Below are positions 1 through 46,454 of a DNA stretch of 46,454 nucleotides, one piece after another (position 1 is the first letter of the stretch; every line of letters starts with the position of its first letter). The notes beneath the pieces were generated by a model. That model made no database searches. It worked only from the letters and a program-made list of their open reading frames with translations, and had not been told where the DNA came from. The position numbers and the translations under genes are program-made. Source of the stretch: a virus (Duplodnaviria; Heunggongvirae; Uroviricota; Caudoviricetes); IMG/VR virus record IMGVR_UViG_3300043024_000042; one strand, given 5' to 3'.

Positions 1-1
1 G

Positions 2-3000: not shown

Positions 3001-6000
3001 CGTCAAGGCCTCGTATGCCGGTGCGCAGTACGAGAATAGGCTGGTGTTCACGTGCAACAAGCAGGTGTGCGGAGAGAACGCTTTGATTTATCAGTTGGCC
3101 CCATCTGTGAGCAGTGTGAAGATAGACGAAGAGGGTAACTACTCCGATGCGGTGCTCCAGGTGAAGGTAACGCGGTCGGACGGTAAGACCATCACCACTC
3201 CCGACACATTGCCCGACGGGTTGAAGATAACCTCCCAACTCCCCGGCGATACGGAGAAGGAGTATGCTTATAACTCCATCCTCGCCTTAAGCAAGAACCA
3301 AATCACGGGTAACGTGAAGTTCTTCCTCTATGCCGGGGATGTGCTTATCGACCAGGAGACCATTCCCATCCTGGAGGATGGCAAGAGCGTGATCATCGCG
3401 GACATGGATAACGAAATGGATGCGGTGGCTTGTGACGAGGATGGCAACGTCCTTGACGGATTCCTTCCCGTTTCGACCACTTACAAGATGTACGCAGGGT
3501 CCCAGCAACTCGCCCTCACCTCGTTGAAGGTGGACGGGATTTCGGGTGTGACGGCAACGGCAGATGCCGAGACGGGCGAGGTCAGCGTGACGGGTATTAC
3601 CAAGAGTGCGGACGCGACCCTTAGAATCCCCATCACGGGCACGGCCTATTTCGGAGGGATGATTTATTCACGCACGTTGTATTTCACGGTGAACAAGCAG
3701 ATATGTGGTGAAAATGCCGTTATCTATCAGTTGCTCCCTTCGGTGAGTGCCGTCAAGATAGACAAGTCGGGGACGTATATCCCCAAGACGTTGAAATGCA
3801 CGTTGAGATACACCAACGGCAAGACAGCCAGCGACACCTCGACCCTGCCAAGCGGTTACTCGATGAAGGTGTCCTACGGGAGCAATGCCGCCTTGAATTA
3901 TACGATAGGCAGTGCGTTGGACATCACGAATGTTTCCGACAGCGTGACGTTCTATCTCTACTCGGGTTCTACCCTTGTGGACAAGGAGACCGTTCCCGTG
4001 GTCGAGGACGGAGCGGACGGGCAGGTGAGTTTCACCTCGTTCGTGTTCAAGCGGACGAACAGCAAGCCTTCCACTCCTTCGGGAGGCTCGTTCCTTGACC
4101 CCATCCCCTCGGGCTGGGATGATACCATCCCCTCGGGAGAAGAGATAGCGTGGATGAGCAAGAGGATATTCACCTCCGATGGGGAGGCTCCGCAGGAAAA
4201 CGGATGGTCCGACCCTATACAAATGACCGATACGGCAGACTTCGATGTGGACTTCTGCAAAACGGAGACCTACGTCACACCCACGGGACACCCGAACACC
4301 GCCAGCGGATGGAGCAATGATGGTACGGATGCCATTTGGATGGCGACCTCGAGGAAATCCAATGGGGTGTGGACGGATTGGGTCGTGTCGAAGATTAAGG
4401 GGGAGAAAGGCGAGGACGGAGACGATGGCAGCAATGCGGACGCTTTCGAGATTCTTCCCTCCGTGCAGTATATCAAGATTGACGCAGACGGCAACCGTTC
4501 TGTAAAGTCGATAACCGTGGCCGTGAATTATATCTCCGGCACGAATGTAACGAAGGTCACTTCATTTAACAGCAGCAGTTCGATATACACGCATCCCCAA
4601 TTATGCTATCAGATTGACGGAGGAACTATTACGGAGACGAATATCGGCAAGAGCATTGACGTAAGCAAGGCGCAGAGCGTGGTGAAGATTATCCTTTACC
4701 AATACTATGGTTTCAGTAGTTTGAAGTTCGTCCGCACGGAGAAGGAGATTCAGGTCGTGTCAGATGGCACTAACGGTACTGACGGTGAGAATGGTGTTAC
4801 CGCATCATTCTATCGCATTACCCCATCCCATCTGCCCCTCCGTCAGAGCCGCACGGGAACGATAAGCCCGCAGTCCTTTGCGGTGACGTGTCAGAAGGTG
4901 GAGGGGTCAGCGGTAAGCGATGCCACCCCGACAAAATGGAGCGTGGAAGGTTCCACGGACGGGAGTTCCTGGACAACCTATTCCAGCAGCAACTACTCCA
5001 CGAGTGGCGCAACGCTTACCGTCAAGTCCATCAGCACGTCATACACCTTCTACCGCATCGGTGCTTATATTGGCAGCAGTTGGGTATACGCTTATGCAAG
5101 TATGTCCATTGACGGTAGCAATGGTGATGATGGCGATGGTATCGAGAGTATCGTGGAGAAATATGCCACCTCGACAAGCGGGACGACCGCCCCTGCGGAT
5201 AGCGAGTTCAAGACCACCATTCCAACCCTAAACAAGGGTTATTACCTATGGAACCAAGAGGTGATCACCTACACGATAAGCGGTGAGGTGAAGGGTGACA
5301 AGAAGGTTATCGGCTATGCGGGTGAGAATGGTACTGACGGAAAGGGTATTACCAAGGTGGAGGAATACTATTTGGCATCCTCCAAATCCTCGGGAGTGAC
5401 TAATGCCACGAGCGGGTTCACCACGGACTTGCAATCAGTGTCGGAGAGTGCCCCCTATCTGTGGAACTACTCGAAGATAACCTATACGGACAATACCACG
5501 ACCAGTTCGACCGCTGTAATTATCGGTATGTGGGTCAAGGGTGATACGGGTTCCATGCCGAGATATTGCGGTACGTATGATTCATCCACCTACTATACGT
5601 ATGACGCGAATTATCGTGACATCGTGGTTTATGGAGGGTCAGCATGGATTGTGAAGACGTATAACACGAGCAAGAAGGGTCAGACACCTTCCTCATCATC
5701 GAGTTTTTGGGAGGCTGCGACATCCTTCTCCTTCGTGGCGATGGACACCGCACTCATTGACGGGGCGAATATCGCAGGATTCGCGTTCAAGGATAACAAG
5801 ATGATGTCGCGGGACACCAATGGCAACTTGATTTTGGACGGAAAGAATGGTACGCTGGTAGCCAACGACATCACTGCCAATGGCACATTCGTCAGTGGCA
5901 CATCGGGAGGTCAGAGAGCGGAGTTGAGTTCCAATGACCTTGTTATCTTCGATGCGGACGGTAATGAGTGTAACAGATTCACGGGTACGAGCATAGGAAC

Positions 6001-6991
6001 GAGTGCCATTCCGTCAAGCTCATCTGTAAGCATTTCACTGACCACAGCGGCTGACAAAACGAGTGGAAGTACAGCCGCGAAAACGAACCTTACGAGTACA
6101 TTTACCGTCAAATCATCGGGCGTGATAAAGATTACGTATAGCGACCTTAAGGTAAGCGTTACATATACCCAGCCGAGTTCGGGCTTGAAGGCTTTTTGCA
6201 CGGGCACTGTTACGCTGTATTTGTGTGAAATGACGGGTTCATCATCGTCAGCATCCATATCCAGCAAAAAAGTGATAGTGGATGCCGCGGTTCAAGGTGA
6301 TGGAACATCCGGCACAAATACATCAGGTACTGGCAGCGGAACGAAATATATGCAGGTGGAGAGCGGATATTACCGTATCTACGCTTTCATTACCGCCACT
6401 CCAGGCACAACAACATCGCTCACAACGACGGGATATTGGAATCTGACTGCGGTGGAGTTTACGCAGGACGTATTCCGTTCCATCCATTTCAAGCAGGGCA
6501 TCGTCCTTTCGCAGACCACGAAGGATTATGTAGCCATGATGACGGATGGGTCGAACATGATATTCGAGGCGATGAGTAACGGAGTGGGTATCCGGGCGAG
6601 AGGTGGGAAATTGCAAATGACGCGGGATGGCTCCACGTGGGGAACTATGCCGATGTTGCTTTATAAAGGATATGCGAAGTATGATTCTGCGAATAGTAAA
6701 TATGAATTGACTATAAATTTTGCTTATAACGGTAAAACAACTGGCGGAAAAGTTTCTTACAATTCTAAAAATGTAGGGCAGGTGACTATAACTTTCCCTT
6801 CTTCTGTATTCGATGAAGATAGCACGATAGTACACGCTATCGGTGCGAAAAATTTAGGAAACAATGATTCATCGAAGGGGGCTTTTTATGTTACATTATG
6901 GGGTATTACCGAGAGTACACTTACATTCTCCGTTTCGGATGATGAAACTTTAAACAATGGGTCATTCATGTTTGATATTTGGCAAATTTAA
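2..6991 (+). CDS. Giant phage tail / tail-fibre protein, >2326 aa, 5' end outside the window
   Basis: Frame is open from position 2. The N-terminal part resembles Bacteroidales phage tail proteins (RLRAFGSTKNMPYRYY). It is followed by repeated beta-rich modules and short DG/NG collagen-like linkers. It lies directly upstream of the fibre genes and lysis cassette. Confidence 0.8.
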   Translation, partial: FNSVADELTRCDFLDYVLDDNMIHYTGLSNFSFYANSVENLAERIQANLDRLYTGDKKWTVKVDPSCVTADKNISVTSISCFDALALVNSQFYVNYTIKGRVITIGAEAVAVSNVFGYGKGNGLYDIKQTTDQDTKIITRLRAFGSTKNMPYRYYNKRGLSESQYCPNLMLPDYIANGQDTYIDADGYQDGNGYVEAEDKISLYGIREGTVYFDGSEDLFGTGEDNEIYPTLEGMTFAEVQAAGYTITAPIGDNGKLDEILSAENPEDDGIAPDDGTEIQSTFKIRLKDFGVDLSERENGAYKYASTDGTMTICMKSGMCQGREFEIVENGITRIEESGYVCYELECNRVEDLSFYYPYNVYRIEAGDQFVITNIQMPDVYVEAAEQRLKASALLYLKEVYETKYKFEPYLDEKYMIEHPELAESICEGMLLNFSDSDLGIAASVTIAQLVIKEGEGLTPLYEVTLNDDVESSTIDKITAQIDKISSGLTDGSMGINKSQTNSLIQTIGSQLFLSKTDADTAQGKITFNKGLQSKGETILGDKFVDGMLGGTGAKFDNKGNAIMQSLTCYGLIQTPELRFNRVDVISGETWNAPGFGTIKSVDTQRQIATLLLEEGEYASVKQNDICRGIFCNFGEGTQSEEKDDCGFYTMVGFSTAYFTPTEILTNEAGSCSFKYALKAGTTVHPSVAMKFAVYGSFTDKDRQASAYETRTMGRYYRNVNTWEIDNDKHLFMATLDLSDITVGTLQLEGYGVYCDNMYIKGRILEIRPEDLAVLKGEDAYSVSLTGEEGLVLVNDYGEIVGGTEALQNVTTQAYNVTSGAYNVVALGYRLTTRIQAFRGSEELEYSAEYGEDKFMVALTCIGCSAMVVNGVMTILSVSDVDECYVIMTVNCEGKSVFEKRYNVTAVRNGSSPLTADIDNEMAAVACDSDGNVLFGLPLTTNVSVWHGTTQLDIDSIILSAPEGVTAQGNRKPDLNSKYGTVTVTDITKEAENVLPINITVKASYAGAQYENRLVFTCNKQVCGENALIYQLAPSVSSVKIDEEGNYSDAVLQVKVTRSDGKTITTPDTLPDGLKITSQLPGDTEKEYAYNSILALSKNQITGNVKFFLYAGDVLIDQETIPILEDGKSVIIADMDNEMDAVACDEDGNVLDGFLPVSTTYKMYAGSQQLALTSLKVDGISGVTATADAETGEVSVTGITKSADATLRIPITGTAYFGGMIYSRTLYFTVNKQICGENAVIYQLLPSVSAVKIDKSGTYIPKTLKCTLRYTNGKTASDTSTLPSGYSMKVSYGSNAALNYTIGSALDITNVSDSVTFYLYSGSTLVDKETVPVVEDGADGQVSFTSFVFKRTNSKPSTPSGGSFLDPIPSGWDDTIPSGEEIAWMSKRIFTSDGEAPQENGWSDPIQMTDTADFDVDFCKTETYVTPTGHPNTASGWSNDGTDAIWMATSRKSNGVWTDWVVSKIKGEKGEDGDDGSNADAFEILPSVQYIKIDADGNRSVKSITVAVNYISGTNVTKVTSFNSSSSIYTHPQLCYQIDGGTITETNIGKSIDVSKAQSVVKIILYQYYGFSSLKFVRTEKEIQVVSDGTNGTDGENGVTASFYRITPSHLPLRQSRTGTISPQSFAVTCQKVEGSAVSDATPTKWSVEGSTDGSSWTTYSSSNYSTSGATLTVKSISTSYTFYRIGAYIGSSWVYAYASMSIDGSNGDDGDGIESIVEKYATSTSGTTAPADSEFKTTIPTLNKGYYLWNQEVITYTISGEVKGDKKVIGYAGENGTDGKGITKVEEYYLASSKSSGVTNATSGFTTDLQSVSESAPYLWNYSKITYTDNTTTSSTAVIIGMWVKGDTGSMPRYCGTYDSSTYYTYDANYRDIVVYGGSAWIVKTYNTSKKGQTPSSSSSFWEAATSFSFVAMDTALIDGANIAGFAFKDNKMMSRDTNGNLILDGKNGTLVANDITANGTFVSGTSGGQRAELSSNDLVIFDADGNECNRFTGTSIGTSAIPSSSSVSISLTTAADKTSGSTAAKTNLTSTFTVKSSGVIKITYSDLKVSVTYTQPSSGLKAFCTGTVTLYLCEMTGSSSSASISSKKVIVDAAVQGDGTSGTNTSGTGSGTKYMQVESGYYRIYAFITATPGTTTSLTTTGYWNLTAVEFTQDVFRSIHFKQGIVLSQTTKDYVAMMTDGSNMIFEAMSNGVGIRARGGKLQMTRDGSTWGTMPMLLYKGYAKYDSANSKYELTINFAYNGKTTGGKVSYNSKNVGQVTITFPSSVFDEDSTIVHAIGAKNLGNNDSSKGAFYVTLWGITESTLTFSVSDDETLNNGSFMFDIWQI
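2741..4012 (+). repeat. Tandem duplication of a ~213-aa module inside the tail protein
   Basis: ADIDNEMAAVACDSDGNVL...LYAGDVLIDQETIPILEDG is followed by ADMDNEMDAVACDEDGNVL...LYSGSTLVDKETVPVVEDG. Both copies contain (C/V)NKQ(V/I)CGENA(L/V)IYQL. Confidence 0.85.
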
Positions 6992-7002
6992 AACATAAAG
7001 AT

Positions 7003-8703
7003 ATGGCAGAAACAACGAATGAAACATTACCGAACCTCGACATACGGGATTTCACCTCGGTGTCGGGATTGGAGAGCACGGACAATATTCTTCTTGTCCT
7101 TGCAGGTGGCGCGGCAGGACAGATTTCCGTGGGCCTCTTCAAGCGGTCGGTCAGCAAATCCGTCAAGCCATCCATTCAGGACGGGTATTGGTGGATAGGT
7201 GATGAGAACACAGAGGTACAAGCGGAGGGCACGACACCCGAGTTTCAGAAGGGAGAGTTGGGTGTCTATTGGAAGTACACCACCGAGAATGACAGTTACT
7301 GGCGGTTGCTTGTGAACTACACCGACATTGCGATGAAGTTCGAGGATTTGACGGACGAGCAAAGGCAGATGCTCATTCCCCATCTTAGCGATTTGACGGA
7401 GGATGAGATAGCCGAGTTGCAGAAACCCGCCAACGACATGATAGCCGTGCTTAAGCAGACGAACCAGGACGTGTCGCAGGCCGAGAACGCGCGGGCCGCA
7501 GCGGAATCCTCGAGAGTGGATGCGGAGAGCCAGCGTGTGACGGAGTTCGCCACACTTAAGAAGGCCTCGGAGGAAAGCACGGATTATGCCAACGAGGTGG
7601 CCCAGCATCCCACCTACGTGGGTGAGGACAACTACGTCTATGTGTGGAACCATACCACACAGACCTTCGACAAGACCAGTAAGTTGGTCAAGGCGGGCGG
7701 TCTGACCATTGACGTAATCTATTCCTCCGTGGCCGAGTTGGAGGCTGACACCCGTGCATGGAACGATGGACTTTTCGCTATGGTGAACACCAATGACGTG
7801 GAGAACCCCGAGGATGCGCGGTTGTACATCCGCCATTCGGGTAAATGGGATTTCGTCTGTGATATGTCGGGTGCCATCGGTCTGACGGGCAAGACCCCGC
7901 AGTTCTTCATCGGAACCATCTCTTTGGGCAAGAATTTGAAGGACGCTGCGGTATCCTTAAGTTATGCGGGGAAAGACGATGATGGGAATCCCAAGTACGA
8001 CATCAACTACACCATCCCACGACTGACGTATGATGATTTGACCGAAGAGCAGATAGCCGAGTTGCAGAAACCCGCCAATGACATGATAGCGGTGTTGAAA
8101 GCCACCAACGAGGCTGTGACGGATGCCGAGAGCAAGCGCGTCACTGCGGAGGATGCAAGGGCCAAGGCCGAATCATCCCGTGTCACTGCCGAATCGGGCC
8201 GTGTGACAGCCGAGGACAAGCGCGTCACCGCGGAGAACACCCGCGTGAGCCAGGAATCCGCGAGGGTCACTGCCGAGACGGAGCGTCAGAGCAATGAAGA
8301 GGTGCGTAAGTCCAACGAGACGGAGCGACAGACCAACGAGACCACGCGGAAGAACGCGGAGGCCCTTCGCCAGCAGCAGTATCAGAAATGCGTCACGGCC
8401 ACCGATGATGCGGTAAAGGCTGCGGACAAGGCCAACACCGCAGCGACCACCGCCGACACCGCAGCCGCCAAGGCCCAGGATGTGGTCGACCACCCCACGA
8501 AGATGGGCGACAATGGTAATTGGTGGCAGTGGAACGCTGACACCCAGCAGTGGGAAGATACGGGGGTGATGGCCCGTGGCGGTCTGCTCTATCCCACCTT
8601 CTACGTGGATCAAAACTTCCACTTGCAGATGAGCAGCGAGAATGAGATGAACGAGGATATGATAACGCTCGGGAGTGACGGACATTTGTATGTACAATTT
8701 TAA
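7003..8703 (+). CDS. Tail-fibre protein with Ala/Glu-rich coiled-coil stalk (566 aa; likely start ATG 7003)
   Basis: AES-RV-AE heptad-like repeats; two internal copies of DLTE-x2-IAELQKPANDMIAVLK; C-terminal GDNGNWW...YPTF module. Confidence 0.7.
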   Translation: MAETTNETLPNLDIRDFTSVSGLESTDNILLVLAGGAAGQISVGLFKRSVSKSVKPSIQDGYWWIGDENTEVQAEGTTPEFQKGELGVYWKYTTENDSYWRLLVNYTDIAMKFEDLTDEQRQMLIPHLSDLTEDEIAELQKPANDMIAVLKQTNQDVSQAENARAAAESSRVDAESQRVTEFATLKKASEESTDYANEVAQHPTYVGEDNYVYVWNHTTQTFDKTSKLVKAGGLTIDVIYSSVAELEADTRAWNDGLFAMVNTNDVENPEDARLYIRHSGKWDFVCDMSGAIGLTGKTPQFFIGTISLGKNLKDAAVSLSYAGKDDDGNPKYDINYTIPRLTYDDLTEEQIAELQKPANDMIAVLKATNEAVTDAESKRVTAEDARAKAESSRVTAESGRVTAEDKRVTAENTRVSQESARVTAETERQSNEEVRKSNETERQTNETTRKNAEALRQQQYQKCVTATDDAVKAADKANTAATTADTAAAKAQDVVDHPTKMGDNGNWWQWNADTQQWEDTGVMARGGLLYPTFYVDQNFHLQMSSENEMNEDMITLGSDGHLYVQF

Positions 8704-11999: not shown

Positions 12000-13373
12000 A
12001 TGATAGAAGTTGAGATTGGTTTTATTTTAAGACAGATTCACAAAGCATCCCTGGGCCGCAGAAAGCGCAAGGATGTGAAGGAGGCTCTGAATGAGATAGA
12101 CCATTACGCGAATATCATTAGGGAAGATATACGAACGGGAAATTACCTCTCCAAACTCCGTTACAAGGTCGGGGAGGTGACGAACAAGAACGGCAAGCAC
12201 CGCATCACCTACCAGCCCGATTTCTATACGCTGGTGGTGATTTACGTGGGGATAGGCTTGATACAGCCGTACTACCAAGAGGTGGACGTGCGCGTGGGCT
12301 TGAACTGCATCAAGCACCGCGGCATCACCGCCAAGGGCAGGAACAACTCGGTTGTCAAGCGAGCCAAGCACGCTTACTTCGACCGCCCCGATTTGACCTA
12401 TGTCCTTTCCATCGACATGAGAAAGTGCTATATGCACTTCCGTCCCGAGGTGGTGAGGAAAGCGTTGAAGGGTATCGGGGTAAGGAAGGAGTTGAACGAC
12501 TTCGTGCTGTCCCTAAGTTTTGTCGGGAAGGTATTCCCGGTGGGCACACCCTTGTCCCCTCTCATCCACCATATCGTATTAAGCAGTTACGACAGAAAGA
12601 TGAAGGGAGAGTGCATGACGCTGCGCTACGCGGACAACGTGTTCTGTTTCTGCAAGAGCAAGGAGCAGGCGCAGAGGTTGAAATGGCGCACGATGAATCA
12701 TTGGTGGTACGAGTTGAAGATTCGTGCCAAGCGTCACGAGATAAAGATAGTGCCCATGAGCGTTCCCCTGGATATTTGCGGATTCATCTTCCATCGCAAC
12801 CATCGGGCCATAACGAGCCACGACAAGGGATATGTGACCGTGAGGAAATCCACCCTAAAGACAGCCATGACTGCCACGGGTAGGAATTGGAGCAGTTACT
12901 TCGGTACATTGCAGAAGGCGGACACCTATTCACTTATGCGAAAAATAGAGCAGCGAATGAAACTGAAACAACTGACTGACAAGATACGAATCAAGCGGAA
13001 TCTCGATGCGAAGGAGATTCATCCCAAAGAACTTGCCGAGACGGGGCAGGTGTTCACCATTTACGATTATGAGATGCGGAAGGATTCCAAGGGCAACGCG
13101 AACTGGATCAAGTGCCTTATCGGTTATCCCGAGATGATAGATGGCGAGCCTACGGGACGGATAGCAGCGCGTGAGTTCCACGGAGGGTTCTCTTGTTTGG
13201 TCGAGTTCCATACGCTGGTCGAGCGGCAGTACGGACAGAAACAGAACTTCCTCCCCATCGAGGATGTTTCCATCGAGAACCACTGCGGCTATGTGTATAA
13301 GGATTCAACGAATACTATTGATTACATCGAAGATGAAAGCAGTGAACAAGATTCAGGTCGCCTCTTCGCGTGA
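12000..13373 (+). CDS. DGR reverse transcriptase with C-terminal extension (457 aa)
   Basis: RT motifs LSIDMRKCY, FPVGTPLSP, LRYADNVF, LDICGFIF; adjacent to the TR/VR pair. Confidence 0.92.
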   Translation: MIEVEIGFILRQIHKASLGRRKRKDVKEALNEIDHYANIIREDIRTGNYLSKLRYKVGEVTNKNGKHRITYQPDFYTLVVIYVGIGLIQPYYQEVDVRVGLNCIKHRGITAKGRNNSVVKRAKHAYFDRPDLTYVLSIDMRKCYMHFRPEVVRKALKGIGVRKELNDFVLSLSFVGKVFPVGTPLSPLIHHIVLSSYDRKMKGECMTLRYADNVFCFCKSKEQAQRLKWRTMNHWWYELKIRAKRHEIKIVPMSVPLDICGFIFHRNHRAITSHDKGYVTVRKSTLKTAMTATGRNWSSYFGTLQKADTYSLMRKIEQRMKLKQLTDKIRIKRNLDAKEIHPKELAETGQVFTIYDYEMRKDSKGNANWIKCLIGYPEMIDGEPTGRIAAREFHGGFSCLVEFHTLVERQYGQKQNFLPIEDVSIENHCGYVYKDSTNTIDYIEDESSEQDSGRLFA

Positions 13374-13989: not shown

Positions 13990-14460
13990 ATGTTAAGTTC
14001 GATTAAGACATTGTTCGTGAGCATTGTGTCAGCGATAGCGGCATATTTGCATCCGTTGGACGGGGAGATGCAAGCAATTCTCGCCGTGTTCTTCTGCAAT
14101 TTCTTCTGCGGTCTGCTGGCCGACATCATCGGCCATAACGGGGGTTTCAAGTTCAAGAAGGCCTGGCGGTGCGTGGTCGAGTGTACGGTGTTCTTCGGGT
14201 TCGTCTGCTTCATCTATTTTGTGGGCGAGCACAAGGGCAATCCCTCGGGGGCCTTGCAGTGCGTGTCGCTTGTGACCTATGCCATCATTTGGTTCTACAC
14301 CACGAATATTCTTAGGAATTTGGGTATCATCCTTCCCGATGGGACCATCGGCCACAGATGTATCAAGTTCATGTATTATGTGGCATCGGTGGAGTTTGTG
14401 AAGAAGATACCTTATCTGTCGGACTATATCAGCAAGGAGGAAAAGAATGAAAGCAAGTGA
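13990..14460 (+). CDS. Phage holin
   Basis: Several hydrophobic segments and a charged C-terminus; overlaps the lysozyme start. Confidence 0.8.
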   Translation: MLSSIKTLFVSIVSAIAAYLHPLDGEMQAILAVFFCNFFCGLLADIIGHNGGFKFKKAWRCVVECTVFFGFVCFIYFVGEHKGNPSGALQCVSLVTYAIIWFYTTNILRNLGIILPDGTIGHRCIKFMYYVASVEFVKKIPYLSDYISKEEKNESK

Positions 14461-14890
14461 CAAACTTATCTCGAAGTTGAAGGAGTACGAGGGCCTGCGG
14501 CTCAATGCCTACAAATGCCCCGCGGGTGCGTGGACGATAGGCTACGGCCATACCAAGGGTGTCAAGCAGGGTGATGTGATAACGGCACAGCAAGCCGAAC
14601 AATACCTTCGGGAGGATTTGTTCTCCTTCGAGCAGGGAGTGATCGTGCTGGCCGGACAGAAGAAGTTCAGCATGACGCAGGGGCAGTTCGATGCCCTTGT
14701 GGACTTCGCCTACAATCTCGGCCTTGGTGCGTTGCGCTCATCGACATTGGTAAGACGCATCGCGGCCGGTGCGGGATTGGAGGTCATTCAAGCCGAGTTC
14801 AAGAAGTGGGTCATAGCAGGAGGAAAGACCCTGCCTGGATTGGTAAGAAGAAGGGAGTGGGAGGCCCAGCGGTATGCGGAAACTGATTAG
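14447..14890 (+). CDS. Endolysin, GH24 (T4/lambda RrrD-like) lysozyme
   Basis: EYEGLRLNAYKCPAGAWTIGYGHT, QGQFDALVDFAYNLG and GLVRRREWE motifs. Confidence 0.93.
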   Translation: MKASDKLISKLKEYEGLRLNAYKCPAGAWTIGYGHTKGVKQGDVITAQQAEQYLREDLFSFEQGVIVLAGQKKFSMTQGQFDALVDFAYNLGLGALRSSTLVRRIAAGAGLEVIQAEFKKWVIAGGKTLPGLVRRREWEAQRYAETD

Positions 14891-17224: not shown

Positions 17225-17313
17225 TCAAGATAGATGAGTTGATAGAGCGCATGGAGTACATGCCGCAGTATGACTTCATGCGCTCTTTGGTTATCGTGTT
17301 ATGGAACCTTTAG
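17221..17313 (+). CDS. Possible 30-aa peptide (MIKIDELIERMEYMPQYDFMRSLVIVLWNL)
   Basis: ATGA overlap with the upstream stop suggests translational coupling; overlaps the integrase 3' end by 15 nt. Confidence 0.45.
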   Translation: MIKIDELIERMEYMPQYDFMRSLVIVLWNL

Positions 17314-18546
17314 CACGAGGTCCAAGACAGCCCGCACTACCTTATCCACCCTGCTCCAGTCCTGGCGCACGTAAACGTCCGTGATTTTGAAAGGGCAGGA
17401 GTGGACGAGGCACATCGCCACATCCTCCATCGGAAAGCCGCAGTCATTGCGTGCGATGGTGGCGAAGGAGTGACGGGCCGTGTACATGGTGAGGTTTTCT
17501 ATCCCCACAAGTTCCCCGATTTTCTTTAACTGTTTGTTGAGTGCTAAGTTAAAACCGCTATAATTAGTATAAAGATTGTTAAAACATAAAAGATGTTCTT
17601 TCAGTGGGTCTTTGTATCTGTCGAGGTATGGCTGCAACTCCGGCTGTATCTCGATAGACATGAAGGATCCGTCCGCACGTTTCTTGCAGGTCTTGCTGCG
17701 GTTGTATTCCACCCGTCCGTCCTTTGCTGGCGCGCATTTGAAAAGGTCCACGGTGTTCATCCCGCACAGCATAAAGGATACGGCATACAAGTCTCGCGCC
17801 ATCTCCATGTGAAGGTTGTGCTCGGGTATCTTGCAGGTAATGATGGAGCGGATTTGTTCGGGAGATAGCGCGCGATGGTTTACCGGATTCTTCTTGGGCA
17901 TGTGATAGTTCACAAACGGATTGCAGCGGACCACAAGCACACCTCTATCCTCGTCATTGTACTTGCGCTTCGCCTCCTTGATAATCTTGGAGAAGATAAC
18001 CATGTATCCGCTGATACCCGAGCCTGTGAGTGGCCTGCCGGAGTGTATGCCTTTCTGCGTATACAGCCAATCCTCGAAGCGCAATACCATGCCGCTCGTG
18101 ATATTGTTGATGGGGCATCTGCGCGAACCAAGGAAAGCCTCGAAACGGTTGAGCATACACTTGTATGTGGTCGCGCGCAGCCTTCCCTCGGCAGTCATTT
18201 CCCCGATGATCCTATCTCCCTCGTCAAAGAAGTCCACGTCAATGGGCTTGTTCTCGAGCATGGCCTTCATGTGGTCGGCAAGGTCCCTGGCGGTGAACAG
18301 CGACACGCTGCGCCCGATTCTCACAAGTTCCTCCCTGATTTTAAGCACCTCCACAGTCACTCTGTCATATATTTTATTGCCTTTCTCCTTTAACGTGAAA
18401 TCCTTTTTGTTGATAAGGTTTTCGGGTACAAAATAGGGTGTTTGCAGATAGGCCGAGCTGCCTTTCTGCGAGATTCGTATCTTTACGTTCCAGGTACCAT
18501 CCTCCTTCATCTGGTGGCGAAGCACCACCGCTTTTACTGTTGCCAT
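17299..18546 (-). CDS. int: Tyrosine recombinase / phage integrase (415 aa; likely start MATVKAVV at 18546)
   Basis: N-terminal arm-binding-like region (NVKIRISQKG); catalytic-domain motifs SFMLCGMNTVDL, ARHSFATIA, LVHS and TDVY. Confidence 0.93.
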   Translation of the reverse strand: MATVKAVVLRHQMKEDGTWNVKIRISQKGSSAYLQTPYFVPENLINKKDFTLKEKGNKIYDRVTVEVLKIREELVRIGRSVSLFTARDLADHMKAMLENKPIDVDFFDEGDRIIGEMTAEGRLRATTYKCMLNRFEAFLGSRRCPINNITSGMVLRFEDWLYTQKGIHSGRPLTGSGISGYMVIFSKIIKEAKRKYNDEDRGVLVVRCNPFVNYHMPKKNPVNHRALSPEQIRSIITCKIPEHNLHMEMARDLYAVSFMLCGMNTVDLFKCAPAKDGRVEYNRSKTCKKRADGSFMSIEIQPELQPYLDRYKDPLKEHLLCFNNLYTNYSGFNLALNKQLKKIGELVGIENLTMYTARHSFATIARNDCGFPMEDVAMCLVHSCPFKITDVYVRQDWSRVDKVVRAVLDLVLKVP

Positions 18547-18585
18547 ATTTTTAACAATTATGTTGTAAAAGTCCGATTCGATTTT

Positions 18586-18800
18586 CGTAAAACATTTGTA
18601 AATGTGATATTCATATATTGCACGATTATCATGCAATATGACATAGATTAAATTTTGCTAAATGTCAGTGCGACTGATTATAAGCTAAATACCACATTTT
18701 CAGTGTTCACGGTATCATAATCTGTTACTTAGTTTCTATTGTATTATAAATCAGTTAGTTGCTAATTTCTTAAAAGTTATCGTAAATCATTTGTAAATGT
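18586..18800. other. Candidate attP
   Basis: 20-bp direct repeats CGTAAA(A/T)CATTTGTAAATGT at 18586 and 18781 (19/20 identical) flank an inverted pair ACTGATTATAA (18673) / TTATAAATCAGT (18744) in AT-rich DNA next to the integrase. Confidence 0.55.
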
Positions 18801-29623: not shown

Positions 29624-30200
29624 GGTAAGTTCAAGATTTCCTTCCCACGTCAATAGCGTGGAGGATGTAATGACGGTCTACTCCCCCAAGCAATGGGATT
29701 ACGTCATGCTCAACAAGGATAACGCTTACACTTGCCTCTGTCCTACCGTAGCGGATGTGAGGGAACTGTACGGCAAGGATGCAGCCGCCCAATGGATAGG
29801 CATACAGATTGCCGCTCTCTTCATCGCCAGCGCAAGCCGTGACGAGGGAATGGCCGACAGTATCAAACTATTCTCGGAGAGTTTTGCCGTGGAAACGGGC
29901 GGTTACAAGCTAACCGAGCTGATGTTGTTCTTTTCCAGGTACCGTGCAGGGCGCTATGACGGGTCTTACACGCAGTTTGACCCGAAGAGAATCGGCAACT
30001 GCTTCTTTCGGGAGTTCCTTAACGAGAGAAACTACGAGCTTGACCATATCGAGCGTGAGCAGAGACGGATGGCCGTTGAGCAGCGCAGGTTTGTCAGCAA
30101 GGATGGAAAATCATCCCTCGAGGCCTACCGTGAGGCGAAACGCAAGGCCGCTGAGGGTGACGAGGAAGCGAAGAAACTGCTCGAGGGGCCATGCAGGTAA
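29580..30200 (+). CDS. DUF6633-like protein (possible helicase-loader partner)
   Basis: CPTVADVRELYG...YKLTELMLFFSRYRAGRY...FDPKRI; follows the initiator-like gene; start uncertain (29538 or 29580). Confidence 0.5.
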   Translation: MKRSLSPSQATYLDKVSSRFPSHVNSVEDVMTVYSPKQWDYVMLNKDNAYTCLCPTVADVRELYGKDAAAQWIGIQIAALFIASASRDEGMADSIKLFSESFAVETGGYKLTELMLFFSRYRAGRYDGSYTQFDPKRIGNCFFREFLNERNYELDHIEREQRRMAVEQRRFVSKDGKSSLEAYREAKRKAAEGDEEAKKLLEGPCR

Positions 30201-30370
30201 GGGTTTACTTTAAGACAAGGATTTACGCGGACATCCGAAAGATAATCGAGCGTTTCAACCTCCAACCCGGAGTGTCGGTGAATTACGAGACGCACGGGGA
30301 TGTGAAGGAATCTGACATTTGGCTTCTCGAGGAAACTGCGAGAAGAGGATATATTGAAATAAGGAAATAA
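30191..30370 (+). CDS. Hypothetical protein (59 aa, MQVRVYFKTR...GYIEIRK)
   Basis: Not in the ORF track (below its cutoff); fills the gap between neighbours with an overlapping start. Confidence 0.6.
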   Translation: MQVRVYFKTRIYADIRKIIERFNLQPGVSVNYETHGDVKESDIWLLEETARRGYIEIRK

Positions 30371-30382
30371 ATAAAAGAAGAA

Positions 30383-30784
30383 ATGACGAAAACATCAAAA
30401 ACACAACTTCTTCTATACACTACTTATATAATTGCTGATTTATTGGATACGTATGTATCCGAGACCGCAAGACAGATGGAACGTGAGAAGGTAAAGGTGG
30501 ACTTCGATACGAGGCATACCTTCAATACTCTTACAGCCAGCGCAAGGAAACTCCGCAAGCAGATAGACGGAACACCGAAAGGAACGCAGAGCGACTTTGG
30601 TGACACGTGCGATATGATTACGTCCATCTTTTCCGTCCTGATAGACCGCATTGGTGATAATGAGCGGGCCGCTTTGGATATATACGAGTATATCAAAGGG
30701 AAGCCAAGTTCGCTCGGATTACAGTTCAAGGGGCTTGATGATGCGTTTTTTAAGAAAAGCAATACGGATGAAGTTAAAGAATAG
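30383..30784 (+). CDS. Hypothetical protein
   Basis: Co-directional ORF in a tightly packed run. Confidence 0.65.
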   Translation: MTKTSKTQLLLYTTYIIADLLDTYVSETARQMEREKVKVDFDTRHTFNTLTASARKLRKQIDGTPKGTQSDFGDTCDMITSIFSVLIDRIGDNERAALDIYEYIKGKPSSLGLQFKGLDDAFFKKSNTDEVKE

Positions 30785-37850: not shown

Positions 37851-38211
37851 TTTTGACGGCGTAACGATGTATCTGAACGGCAGGCCGGTAGGATTCGGAA
37901 AGCTGGTAGTACCAAGTTACGAGTGTAAAGTTACCGGAGAGGCCGGGGTAAAAGCGCCTGACGGATTCTCTGTAAGTGGCAGTTTTGAAATCAAACGACC
38001 GGTTGACGAAGAACGTGAGTATAAAGAGAAGAACCGCCAGCGTGTGATTCGACAGATATTTTACCATTATCGCAAGTCACGTAAGGCGAAGTCCGATTCA
38101 TTCCGCGCACATCATCTAAGGAGACTTCAGGAGCTTTTTTCGCTCTTGCACTTGTGTAGTTTTAATCCTGCCAAATGGGGATGGCCGCAGGATGAAGTGT
38201 TACTTATATAA
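37834..38211 (+). CDS. Hypothetical protein
   Basis: Packed ORF. Confidence 0.55.
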   Translation: MGKENDFDGVTMYLNGRPVGFGKLVVPSYECKVTGEAGVKAPDGFSVSGSFEIKRPVDEEREYKEKNRQRVIRQIFYHYRKSRKAKSDSFRAHHLRRLQELFSLLHLCSFNPAKWGWPQDEVLLI

Positions 38212-38226
38212 AAGAAAGGAGTTTGT

Positions 38227-39153
38227 ATGCGAATAGGTTTAGTTGATGTAGACGGAAAGAATTTCCCGAACTTCGCTATAATGAAAATCTCATCGTACCA
38301 CAAATCTGTGGGAGATAGCGTTGAGTGGGCCAGTCCAATGTTCGGCGATTACGATAGGGTATATATGAGTAAAATCTTCACCTTTACCCCCCCATATCGG
38401 CAATCGTTTGATTGTGAGGTCATTAAAGGAGGTACTGGATACGATTTGCATAAAAAGTTACCTGAAGAGATTGACGCCATGCTACCTGATTATTCCATCT
38501 ATCCACAAGTTGACGACCGCACGGCATACGGATTCATCACTCGTGGATGTCCGAATAAATGCAAATGGTGTGTAGTGCCAATCAAGGAGGGAAGTGTAAC
38601 TCCATATCGTGATGTGGACGAGATAGCAGAAGAAGGCCGTAGGAACAAGTTGATTCTGATGGATAATAATATCCTTGCATCGGATTACGGATTGAGTCAG
38701 ATTGAAAAGATTGTCATACGTAAGTATCGCGTAGACTTCAATCAAGCATTGGATGCAAGGCTTGTAACCGATGAGATAGCGCAGTTGTTGGCGAAGGTCC
38801 ATTGGCTTAACTTTATCCGTTTTGGATGTGATACTCCAAGGCAGATTAATGAATGTGAACGCGCCATGAAGATGATAGACAGCTATCGCGGACGTCCTGC
38901 CTCCTATCTGATGTACACGATGATAGGACACGACATGCAGGAGGCCTACGAGCGATTGAGCTACTTCCGCGGTTTCCGCAGAGTGCGCGTGGTGGCACAG
39001 CCATTCCGTGACTTCGACAACCCTGAGCAGGTTATTCCTCAATGGCAGAATGATATGGCTCGCTGGGCCATGCGCCGGGAGTTTTGGGCCACATGCGATT
39101 TCAAGGACTTCTCTCCGCGAAAAGGATTCACGTGCCGAGAGTATTTTAAATGA
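38227..39153 (+). CDS. Radical SAM protein (308 aa)
   Basis: TRGCPNKCKWC (CxxxCxxC); LMDNNIL; FNQALDARL. Confidence 0.9.
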   Translation: MRIGLVDVDGKNFPNFAIMKISSYHKSVGDSVEWASPMFGDYDRVYMSKIFTFTPPYRQSFDCEVIKGGTGYDLHKKLPEEIDAMLPDYSIYPQVDDRTAYGFITRGCPNKCKWCVVPIKEGSVTPYRDVDEIAEEGRRNKLILMDNNILASDYGLSQIEKIVIRKYRVDFNQALDARLVTDEIAQLLAKVHWLNFIRFGCDTPRQINECERAMKMIDSYRGRPASYLMYTMIGHDMQEAYERLSYFRGFRRVRVVAQPFRDFDNPEQVIPQWQNDMARWAMRREFWATCDFKDFSPRKGFTCREYFK

Positions 39154-39191
39154 TTATTTATTATCTTTGCATAACCAAAAAAAATAATTCT

Positions 39192-43481: not shown

Positions 43482-43815
43482 CTTCCGGGATTTGTCAAAG
43501 GTTGACAACAAGCAGTTGAGAAATATCTACGAGACTGCCTGTTGCGAGTACATCAAGCGGCTTTGCAAGATGTACGACTGGGACTATCCGCGCGGATGGT
43601 GGGTGTCTGACCAGCCGGGAGGCGTGTTCTGTACCGATGATATAGAATATTCTCTCGGAATGGATGACATCAAGCTTCTTGTCGATGCGGAGGTCCCGTT
43701 CAGTGTCTTTGAGCAGTGGTGGGATTATAATTCGAGTGAATACATTAAAGACAGTGGCTCTCCCAATATCATCAACCTGCATAGCTGGCTGAATGGGATG
43801 AGGCCCAGACAGTGA
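43459..43815 (+). CDS. Hypothetical protein
   Basis: Ends INLHSWLNGMRPRQ; packed ORF. Confidence 0.6.
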   Translation: MNRPTLSNFRDLSKVDNKQLRNIYETACCEYIKRLCKMYDWDYPRGWWVSDQPGGVFCTDDIEYSLGMDDIKLLVDAEVPFSVFEQWWDYNSSEYIKDSGSPNIINLHSWLNGMRPRQ

Positions 43816-43833
43816 TTAATTAACGCCAAGGAA

Positions 43834-44777
43834 ATGACTCTTACACTTCAGGACTTGAAAGAGCGCCAGTCGTGGACGCTTGAACAGAAGATAGACCATT
43901 CCCTCGCCGTGATAGACGAGTTCGTCCGTGATAGGGGGGGGTAAATAATGTTTACGTTTCGTTTAGCGGAGGAAAGGATTCCACCGTGTTGTTGCATCTT
44001 GTCAGACGGCTTTATCCGGACGTGAAGGCGGTGTTTGTGAACACCACAATGGAATATCCGAGCATTTGCCGTTTCGTGCGTCAGATGCGCGACGATGGTG
44101 CCGACATCGACATCATCATGCCGAAGATGAAGCCAAAGAGGATATGGCAGAAATGGGGATTCCCTCTTATATCGAAGGAAACGGCCAACAAGATTTACCG
44201 CATAAGGTACAATCCCGACAGTGCCGCCGCAGAGAAATGGATGAGGAATACAGGACTGTACAAACTTCCGCTGAAATGGCGATGGTTGCTTGATGAGAAG
44301 TTCTGCTGTGCTGACAACTGTTGCAGGAAGCTCAAAAAAGAGCCTGCGGAGCGATATGAGCGCAAAACTGGCCGTTACCCTATACTCGGTATCCTCGCGT
44401 CTGAAAGTCGCCTTAGAACGCACGAATGGATGCGTCACGGAGGTTGTAACGTACTGGATGGCGTCCGCAAGAAGTCCAAGCCGCTCTCCATTTGGACCGA
44501 CAAGGATATTTGGGATTATATCCACAAGTACAATCTGAAGTACGCCGACATCTACGACAAAGGGATAGGGCAGACCGGATGTGCCTGCTGTGGATTTTCC
44601 ATCAGTTATGAGGATACGTGCAAGTTTGAGGTGTTGTACGAGCTTTATCCGAAGCTGTACAGACATGTACTTGGTTTTACTAACAACGGTGTCACGTTCA
44701 GGGAGGCATTGCGTAAGGTGCTTGACAAGCTCGGACGCAAGTTGCCTGACGAGCGCGACCCGAAAATATTTGATTAG
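43834..44777 (+). pseudogene. PAPS-reductase-family (PP-loop) gene, frameshifted at a G8 tract (43934-43941)
   Basis: Frame 1 reads MTLTLQDL...DRGG then TAA (43942). The -1 frame continues VNNVYVSFSGGKDSTVLLHL...CC...LKKEP...TGCACC to 44777. Confidence 0.85.
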
Positions 44778-44785
44778 GAAGGGTT

Positions 44786-45244
44786 ATGAAAAATGAATAT
44801 TTTATGATACAGACTCCGACGTTCGGATTCGACCGTCCGCACATCGTCGATGATGAAGAGTTCTTTAGGAAATGTTGCAGGCGCATTGGAATCGTCGGTT
44901 TTTTTACAGATGACCGAATGATATTTCCGTCATGTCAGTGGCTGTACATTCCTAAAGGAGAAAAGCTTTTAAATTACGCGCATCGGGATGAGGTATTCCT
45001 GATGTTCGAGAACCACAGGACGCCCATTGACGGCAAACTGGTGTACGAATACGTTCAGAATTACATCATTGATACGCTGATTAAGCCGGCGGTCAAAAAT
45101 CGTTTAAGATGGAAACTCGATTTGGGCGGCGTTAAGTTTTTCGAGCGTCAGATAAGGTATGTGGTGCGCGACGCTTTTCACAGCGCAATGAGAGACCATA
45201 TTTTCTACGACCACGATAAATGGAGGGCGCAACATGGAAAATAA
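44786..45244 (+). CDS. Hypothetical protein
   Basis: Packed ORF. Confidence 0.6.
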   Translation: MKNEYFMIQTPTFGFDRPHIVDDEEFFRKCCRRIGIVGFFTDDRMIFPSCQWLYIPKGEKLLNYAHRDEVFLMFENHRTPIDGKLVYEYVQNYIIDTLIKPAVKNRLRWKLDLGGVKFFERQIRYVVRDAFHSAMRDHIFYDHDKWRAQHGK

Positions 45245-45536
45245 TGCCGTTATGTATTTATTGTCTGTCGCACTGACAATATTCAATCTAATATATATGA
45301 GGTTCCATTATTACCGCAGCATCCACTATAATGCTTGGAGAAGGGTTCGTTATCCGTTGTGGCAATGGTTTCTTATCGCTGTTATAGGGTTTATCCCGTT
45401 CTTTGGCATTGTTGTAGAAACAATGTTCTTTTTCTCCCTTGTCATCAATATGGGACTCGATAGCAGTTATAGCTGGGACCCGTATCATAAGACGCTTCTC
45501 GGGAAAGTAATAAAGGCTTTAAAGAAGGAATACTGA
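45234..45536 (+). CDS. Membrane protein
   Basis: Two to three hydrophobic segments. Confidence 0.6.
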   Translation: MENNAVMYLLSVALTIFNLIYMRFHYYRSIHYNAWRRVRYPLWQWFLIAVIGFIPFFGIVVETMFFFSLVINMGLDSSYSWDPYHKTLLGKVIKALKKEY

Positions 45537-45537
45537 T

Positions 45538-46454
45538 ATGAATATCCGAGTGTTTGAAGCTTTCGCCGGCTACGGTAGTACGGCCATAGCGTTGAAAAAG
45601 TTATCCAAGGATTACCCCCCCCCCTAAATCTTACATTTATAGGGATTTCCGAGATAGACAAGAACGCCGCCAAAGCCTACAAGGCATTGCATGGTGACGT
45701 TCGGAACTACGGCGATATATGTAAGATTAAGTGGAGCAAGGTTCCTGACTTCGACCTGTTCACCTATTCATTCCCATGTACCTCTATATCCAGCATCGGA
45801 CTTCGTGAGGGCATGACAGAGGGTAGTGGAACGCCGAGTTCGCTTATGTGGGAATGTGAACGGGCTATCGAGCTGAAATGGCCGAGATACCTCCTTATGG
45901 AGAACGTCAGGGCATTGGTGAACAAGAAGAATATGCCGCAATTCAAGCGATGGATGGGCAGGCTGGCTTCACTCGGTTATAGGAGCGAGTGGAAACTGGT
46001 CAATTCCTCCGACTACGGAGTGCCACAGAACAGACCGAGAGTGATTATGGTGAGTATCCTTCAGAATGGCAAGCGGGAATCATTCTCCTTTCCCGAAGGA
46101 TTCAAGCTGACGAGAACAATTAACGACATCATCGAACGCGGTGTGGATGCCAAGTACTATCTAAAACAGGTTAAAGTCGATGGCGGAGTCAAGTTCCCGT
46201 TAAGCCGTAGGCTGACCGAGATGTGTGAGTGCGGTAAGGTGGATACCGGAAAGAATCTTTGGATTGACGCCTACAACCGCACGACGAACGATAAGGTATC
46301 CGGTACGGTGCTTACGAGAGTGTCGGCCAGCAATCATTACTTCATCAGTGAGAAAACGGATAGGAATGGTGGATATCGTATCCGTAAGCTGACTCCGTTT
46401 GAGACAGGCCGTCTGATGGGCCTTACCGATGACGAGGTTCAAAGGATGAAGGAT
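45538..46454 (+). pseudogene. C5 cytosine DNA methyltransferase, frameshifted at a C10 tract (45615-45624); runs off the window end
   Basis: Frame 1 has motif I FEAFAGYGS, then YPPP-TAA (45625). The -1 frame carries SEID, YGDI, SFPC (IV), MENV (VI), QNRPRV (VIII) and RKLTPFETGRLMG (IX) and is open to 46454. Confidence 0.88.

Follow-up and report, generated by a model that had tools for sequence, protein, structure and literature searches.

Length-variable G and C tracts probably act as contingency switches of a PAPS-reductase-like gene and an adjacent C5 methyltransferase gene in a temperate phage

The phage genome IMGVR_UViG_3300043024_000042 (Caudoviricetes; IMG/VR) was analyzed as a single stretch of 46,454 nt, hereafter the window, in which positions are numbered from the first letter. 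Two of its genes, one for a protein resembling 3'-phosphoadenosine-5'-phosphosulfate (PAPS) reductase and one for a C5 DNA methyltransferase, are broken near their 5' ends by a homopolymer, a run of eight G (G8) in the former and a run of ten C (C10) in the latter. These runs are probably hypermutable tracts of the contingency type, through which two genes with a probable role in DNA modification are turned on and off. A slippage-prone switch had been proposed in an earlier note on this DNA, and the proposal is supported by the polymorphism of the tracts among strains, by a sister strain in which both genes are in frame, and by the retention of the tract in a paralogous methylase.

The G8 tract (43934 to 43941, plus strand) occupies codons 34 to 36 of 314 (Arg-Gly-Gly) in the PAPS-reductase-like gene, and the C10 tract (45615 to 45624, plus strand) occupies codons 26 to 29 of ~352 (Tyr-Pro-Pro-Pro) in the methyltransferase gene. 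A run census of the window confirmed that they are its longest G and C runs and the two longest G/C runs overall, lying ~1.7 kb apart near the 5' ends of the two genes as the earlier note had described, with starts separated by 1681 nt. The next-longest G/C run is a C7 at 38387, followed by runs of 5. When the decay of run lengths in the window (69 G4 and 8 G5; 73 C4 and 12 C5) is extrapolated, far fewer than one G8 or C10 is expected by chance per window.

Both tracts are followed directly on their 3' side by TAAAT. The zero frame of the PAPS-reductase-like gene leads from ATG at 43834 through AGG GGG GGG to TAA (36 codons; 43834 to 43944, plus strand), and that of the methylase gene leads from ATG at 45538 through TAC CCC CCC CCC to TAA (29 codons; 45538 to 45627, plus strand). 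One added nucleotide, equivalent to a −1 slip, mends either gene, and the frames read from the last base of G8 or C10 are open: the former continues for 278 codons to a natural stop (43941 to 44777, plus strand), while the latter continues for 277 codons and runs off the end of the window (45624 to 46454, plus strand). The earlier note had read the immediate stops, the repair by one nucleotide, and the stop-free downstream halves in the same way. At the G tract, the junction TAAATAA (43942 to 43948, plus strand) stops the G8 frame immediately with TAA and a G10 frame one codon later (AAA TAA), and both nonproductive frames of the PAPS-reductase-like gene end within 0 to 2 codons of the tract; the productive frame across the junction is (G)TA AAT AAT (Val-Asn-Asn). 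Both genes have the layout of a contingency locus, with a homopolymer in the 5' part of the open reading frame (ORF) whose lengthening or shortening by 1 nt alters the frame.

To compare tract alleles, contigs were fetched from the 90%-identity protein clusters of both genes, which contain truncated as well as full-length members, and the tracts were tabulated per contig. Haplotype A, to which the window belongs, carries G8 and C10 with both genes out of frame; it was also found in contigs L005/L015 (JGI 3300035521), L006 (3300035522), and L012 (SRR11794512), and C10 was found in three contigs recorded for the C tract only, L016 (3300043108), L083 (3300043109), and L169 (SRR11794561). All haplotype A contigs match the window either exactly or with a single-nucleotide polymorphism (SNP) at one site. 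In haplotype B, a strain 97.5% identical to the strain A of the window, the tracts are G9 and C8, and both genes are in frame and encode proteins of 314 and 351 aa (L001/4/7, 3300035502; L008, SRR11793812; L009, SRR11793810). Two more contigs of this haplotype, L010 and L011, recorded for the G tract only, have G9, and so does haplotype B' (L013; C tract not covered), with the PAPS-reductase-like gene in frame. Haplotype D (L080, JGI 3300035516) has G8 and a C9 followed by T, equal in length to C10, and both of its genes are out of frame, while the C6 of haplotype E (L081; G tract not covered) places the methylase in the other wrong frame.

The comparison across relatives that the earlier note had suggested thus located the tracts at the same positions with polymorphic lengths, G8/G9 and C10/C9T/C8/C6, among haplotypes that are 96.5 to 100% identical. 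Over 6.5 kb, 158 substitutions separate A from B, but the G and C tracts account for the only two indels. Over 7.3 kb, there are ~180 substitutions and one added indel, A8 versus A6 at 39177, and all three A-B indels lie in homopolymers of 8 or more. At least three changes have taken place at the C tract among four haplotypes. This excess of indels at the tracts is an indirect indication that their mutation rate is far above background. A megablast of positions 43600 to 46454 against the GenBank phage collection gave no match, and variable-length pattern searches for both tracts in viral contigs returned the strain B contig only.

Two further observations concern tract lengths. The A8 run at 39177 to 39184 (A6 in B), the only A-B indel outside the G/C tracts, is part of a leader: a Bacteroidota-type −7 box (TAtcTTTG) closely precedes it, an ATG follows after 7 nt, and its length may tune expression of the downstream gene. 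Contig L014 (JGI 3300035517) represents a fifth haplotype with 30 to 36 differences in 834 nt; this 917-nt contig ends 2 nt after the G tract, an assembly break that may stem from mixed tract lengths or merely from low coverage.

Judged by their substitutions, the frames behind the breaks are under purifying selection, even where one out-of-frame lineage is compared with another. For the PAPS-reductase-like frame behind the G tract, we counted 21 synonymous and no nonsynonymous differences between A and B, and 10 and none between A and D, both of which are G8 (binomial p = 1.6e-7 versus neutrality); in every comparison, there were 0 nonsynonymous against 10 to 23 synonymous differences. In the methylase, A and D, again both out of frame, differ by 17 synonymous and 9 nonsynonymous changes (p = 2e-6), the ratio of nonsynonymous to synonymous polymorphism (pN/pS) is 0.15 to 0.24, and each of the four haplotypes retains an uninterrupted frame of 323 codons. 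The downstream frames of both genes were free of stops and further indels in the haplotypes compared. The haplotypes form the grouping ((A,D),B),C by distance, which makes it probable that G8 and a C tract in the C10-length frame date back to the ancestor shared by A and D. The broken genes are thus not dead: either flipping is frequent enough to expose the in-frame state to selection, or some enzyme is still made out of frame. Since the natural alleles and the ratio of nonsynonymous to synonymous substitution rates (dN/dS) show live genes, annotation pipelines should not discard such “broken” copies as pseudogenes.

The tract itself also appears to be kept by selection. A paralogous C5 methylase, P0126 (locus L164), which is 61% identical to that of the window, has TTA-C8-TAAA at the same Tyr-Pro-Pro-Leu codons; the DNA around this C8 tract has diverged from the window, while the tract has been kept. 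By hand estimate, the chance of TAC-CCC-CCC-CTA from codon usage alone is ~0.002. In the codon usage of the phage, the G run needs AGG (17.8% of Arg codons) followed by GGG and GGG (12.5% of Gly codons), and a TAA behind the runs needs GTA (15.6% of Val codons) or CTA (2.4% of Leu codons). A tract kept against this codon bias in a 61%-identical paralogue is not expected of an accidental run. The paralogous TTA-C8-TAAA, together with pN/pS values of 0 to 0.24 that include OFF-versus-OFF pairs, fits a repeat maintained by selection in functional genes, as in contingency loci.

The flanks of the tracts are nonrandom as well. Among the 11 long tracts of the window and L164, written as C runs, 9 are directly preceded by TA (control 8.5%, p = 1e-8) and 5 are directly followed by it (control 4%, p = 4e-5). 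The exact 5-mer TAAAT partly reflects the Leu-Asn or Val-Asn coding typical of the families, and the robust signal is the TA flanks. Consequently, while the matching TAAAT junctions stressed by the earlier note are present at both runs, they are better described as instances of a TTA-C(n)-TA context in which most long tracts of this phage lineage lie. This context, conserved between paralogues, adds to the known picture of such tracts and may point to a rule at the DNA level for their placement or origin. The L164 sequence is itself rich in runs: within positions 1 to 7053 of this 33.6-kb contig (JGI 3300035522), eight G/C runs of 7 to 10 nt occur in 7 kb, mostly in methylase parts. One of them, a G10, stands directly before the stop of a C5 methylase, where its length would determine whether translation continues into small ORFs downstream, and two further long runs lie within a second methylase fragment.

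We propose that the tracts sit early in two co-oriented, probably cotranscribed accessory genes of a Bacteroidales-type phage, which a tyrosine integrase gene (17299 to 18636, minus strand; SAM-like domain, 1.7e-10) indicates to be temperate. Slipped-strand mispairing during replication would add bases to a run or remove them, leaving both genes one base short in strain A, where they would end on the TAA right after the run, and both in frame in strain B. Selection would keep the tract and its TA flanks, so that the lineage would retain quick gain and loss of both functions; most likely this would help the phage match hosts in which restriction either demands the modification or is directed at it. 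A low level of −1 slippage at the run, whether by the ribosome (at GGG-GGG-UAA or CCC-CCC-UAA) or in transcription, would yield the exact in-frame protein, and this leak may add to the constraint seen in out-of-frame lineages. Slipped-strand mispairing is the best-supported mechanism, as a change of length at the DNA level was observed directly.

Phage-borne methylases are a main escape route from host restriction, and type IV systems for their part target DNA that carries modifications. Modification genes flipped by slippage would be a cheap heritable hedge, with a bearing on host-range prediction and on the design of phage therapy. The PAPS-reductase family is common in phages; here, a member of it is controlled by a tract just as the neighboring methylase is and agrees with it in state in three haplotypes, which makes this gene a candidate partner in genome modification or counter-defense.

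Several points weigh against a rapid switch. Within a haplotype, tract length is the same in all assemblies, and A and D share G8 and the methylase frame across ~6 to 8% synonymous divergence; such sharing looks stable, not rapidly flipping, and fits recoding or repeated selection too. The agreement in state between the two genes (OFF/OFF, ON/ON, OFF/OFF) is drawn from three haplotypes only. The assemblies probably derive from few related sample series, and the replicates, while independent of one another as assemblies, are perhaps not so as populations. Reversibility, switching speed, and switching within populations are what we infer from the natural alleles. Hedging against restriction, the nature of the selective agent, and a DNA-modifying role of the PAPS-reductase-like protein are likewise conclusions that we infer, and the putative status of this last role also weighs against the proposal.

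Recoding as the main route of expression is an unlikely alternative, although it could explain part of the data. Broken alleles would be expressed constitutively, by a −1 slip of the ribosomal P site on the run with TAA in the A site or by stuttering of RNA polymerase, and tract length would set the dose and not an ON/OFF state. The runs are suitably slippery: re-pairing in the P site can be perfect at GGG GGG TAA and CCC CCC TAA, and a −1 slip there (or, in haplotype D, at CCC-CCT-TAA) gives the exact protein of the in-frame strain. Moreover, the stop right behind both runs requires rare codons and is conserved in the paralogue, and A and D are both out of frame yet under strong purifying selection. 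On the other hand, when the 80 nt downstream of each site were folded and compared with shuffles, no stable structure emerged at either (z = +1.10 and −1.54), and no frame requirement is conserved, as relatives have G9, C8, or C6; with C8 the methylase is in frame, C10 and C9T need a −1 shift, and C6 needs the other shift. With shift requirements that vary among the alleles and are nil in some, and with no conspicuous structure downstream, programmed frameshifting is improbable as the sole route. In addition, the length change is seen directly in DNA, and slippage on G/C runs is less documented than slippage on A/T runs.

A related and similarly doubtful possibility is that the run and TAA together form a dedicated “shifty stop,” at which −1 slippage of the ribosome or of RNA polymerase permits low, tract-length-dependent translation. 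If so, a rheostat and not a binary switch would tune the dose of the DNA-modifying enzymes, which would account for full purifying selection in lineages that share the out-of-frame state.

Plain gene loss is less probable still. According to this explanation, accessory genes of strain A, and independently or by descent those of D and E, were inactivated by ordinary frameshifts at mutation-prone runs and are now decaying with no switching. Three of the four methylase haplotypes are indeed out of frame, lengths are fixed within each haplotype, and some genes of a temperate phage may be dispensable in the lysogen. Variable cassettes also lie nearby, as two small ORFs between the genes, orf152 and orf100, are missing in D and a radical-SAM-like gene is missing in B. 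Decay is contradicted by the 0 nonsynonymous against 10 to 23 synonymous differences of the PAPS-reductase-like gene, OFF-versus-OFF pairs included, by the low pN/pS of a methylase frame free of stops and further indels, and by the retention of the tract in the 61%-identical paralogue against codon bias. A sequencing or assembly artifact, that is, a homopolymer under-call in one assembly, of the kind against which the earlier note had cautioned, is highly improbable: repair of both breaks by one nucleotide at the two longest G/C runs is the classical signature of such errors, but G8/C10 recurs in at least six further assemblies from two pipelines (JGI and Logan), G9, C8, C9T, and C6 are reproducible in other haplotypes, lengths follow the SNP haplotype perfectly, and the C alleles lie 2 and 4 nt apart and not 1, which together exclude a one-base under-call.

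The protein behind the G tract belongs to the PAPS reductase/PP-loop ATP pyrophosphatase type. Its downstream frame matches PF01507 (PAPS_reduct) at 3.3e-23 (83 bits; cut-off 22.5), and a match to phrog_424 was obtained at 6.2e-43. The PP-loop SFSGGKDS, which conforms to SGGxDS, lies just 3' of the tract, and the Cys clusters CCADNCC and GCACCG follow in the same frame, while the 36-codon 5' fragment contains the conserved N-terminus of the family (WTLEQKID). The downstream protein is 100% identical to that of the intact 314-aa gene of strain B. A product reinitiated from GTG at 43986 was considered as a functional form and rejected, as it would lack the PP-loop.

Assignment of this protein to a phosphorothioation system of the DndC, SspD, or BrxP type was not supported. 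The match to BrxP is partial (residues 23 to 111, 1.3e-19), that to SspD is weak (3.7e-5), and no NCBIfam model reached its cut-off. Phosphorothioation systems require an NTPase partner (PMC12914056), and no DndD/SspC/BrxC-type NTPase was found among the neighbors in the window, L004, and L015, which are RecT, small ORFs, the methylase, Lactamase_B_2, and DUF1064. The literature on a phage role of PAPS reductases yielded nothing usable. On its motifs, the protein is a PP-loop enzyme with Cys clusters that possibly acts on DNA or nucleotides. Thus, where the earlier note had called both genes “DNA-modification type,” the description holds for the methylase, which has all catalytic motifs, and is a reasonable guess only for the PAPS-reductase-like gene.

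A metagenome-contig search with the PAPS-reductase-like protein retrieved distant relatives only (25 to 55% identical) and no near-identical strain; homologues were found in Muribaculaceae-type assemblies. Most of the ~55 distant metagenomic homologues are intact, and the closest of them (52 to 55% identical) encode the same Gly-Gly by mixed codons, with no run. Two distant homologues, which are 44 to 67% identical, change frame at another loop (residue ~88), at G7-TAAAT in L055 (810 to 821) and at G7-TGAAC in L061 (834 to 843); their in-frame reading is Gly-Gly-Val-Asn, like that of the G site in the window. A further homologue, in L060 (55% identical), has a frame change at an A8 run, and a methylase lies directly behind its PAPS-reductase-like gene. 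The same arrangement is found in haplotype D (L080, positions 1900 to 1940), where the methylase directly follows the PAPS-reductase-like gene in the absence of orf152 and orf100. Direct adjacency in L060 and D supports, but does not prove, a functional pairing of the two genes.

The methylase is cut by the window end, and its complete downstream part spans 323 codons in L015. The downstream part matches PF00145 (DNA_methylase) at 1.6e-49 (169.5 bits; cut-off 22), and the intact methylase of strain B scores 189.3 bits with TIGR00675 (cut-off 100.65). As the PF00145 match begins at profile position 25, motif I (FAGYGS) is placed in the 29-codon head. The further motifs of C5 methyltransferases, FPCT (IV), MENV (VI), QNRPR (VIII), and GNS (X), are present in the downstream frame, and the C tract falls between motif I and GISEID, in a loop of variable length. 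A split, two-piece methylase was rejected, since the head has only 29 aa and the sister strain encodes a single polypeptide, and so was a product reinitiated from TTG at 45687, which would be devoid of motif I.

The phenomenon is of a type known in phages. Poly-A repeats in agt (alpha-glucosyltransferase) and rIIA of T2 and T4 are contingency loci (Gomez, Barrick and Waters, 10.1101/2025.10.21.683753); in T2, a poly-A run toggles agt, which allows escape from TgvAB at the risk of McrBC, and the tracts were shown experimentally to revert ~1000-fold more often and to yield read-level variants at ~7e-4 (10.1101/2025.10.21.683753). The present genes resemble agt in having a homopolymer, in a probable phage DNA-modification gene, that is subject to ±1 frameshifts. 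In the T2/T4 case, the OFF state evades a restriction system that depends on the modification and the ON state gives protection from another one, a form of bet hedging. In contrast to those mid-gene A runs of lytic coliphages, the tracts described here are G/C runs of 8 to 10 at the 5' ends of two adjacent genes, one of them PAPS-reductase-like, in a temperate gut-type phage, and their behavior is deduced from natural alleles only.

Hypermutable polyG tracts of variable length that generate phenotypic diversity have been described in Campylobacter phages (Sorensen et al. 2021, Cell Rep 35:109214, as cited in PMC12823448); judged by its title, that work concerns evasion of bacterial resistance, whereas the targets here are modification enzymes. 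In bacterial phasevarions and polyG/C contingency genes (e.g., PMC3936762 and PMC4965091), simple-sequence repeats near the 5' ends of methyltransferase genes turn them ON and OFF by slipped-strand mispairing, examples being the type III mod genes of Haemophilus and Neisseria and polyG/C methyltransferases of Helicobacter and Campylobacter. Those genes are chromosomal and serve host expression or restriction-modification, while the present ones are phage-borne and would have phage or host DNA as their substrate during infection. We also found that the genome of Bordetella phage BPP-1 (AY029185.2, L167, 42.5 kb) has a single G/C run of at least 7, a G8 on the coding strand (29922 to 29929) inside bpm, the adenine DNA methyltransferase gene (29758 to 30513, minus strand). 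BPP-1 is thus another phage with a diversity-generating retroelement (DGR) and a homopolymer in its methylase gene, but bpm encodes an adenine methylase, and its run is mid-gene and in frame in the record.

The window also contains a DGR-type reverse transcriptase gene (12000 to 13373; RVT_1, 7.6e-13). The earlier note had paired the tracts with DGR receptor variation; the reverse transcriptase is there, but nothing beyond co-occurrence in one genome ties it to the tracts, and the link was not retained. The order of genes in the window is DGR reverse transcriptase, integrase, SNF2-like helicase, radical-SAM-like gene, DnaB-like helicase, RecT, and the tract module. Between the two switched genes lie orf152 (44786 to 45244, plus strand), which has no family match, and orf100 (45234 to 45536, plus strand), which encodes a small hydrophobic protein with a weak match to DUF3817.

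The radical-SAM-like gene (38227 to 39153; PF04055, 2.3e-6, below the cut-off) contains the third-longest G/C run of the window, the C7 at 38387 to 38393 (TTTA-C7-AT), which is in frame. Its absence from strain B corresponds to window positions 38202 to 39159, which are lacking in L166. In relatives of this gene that are 73% identical (L103 and L105), a G10 with a frame change is found near residue 246. Downstream of the methylase in strain B (L004, positions 7418 to 8301), a lysis-type block is 70% identical to window positions 14009 to 14880 in reversed orientation, a match from which it follows that genome order differs between strains A and B.

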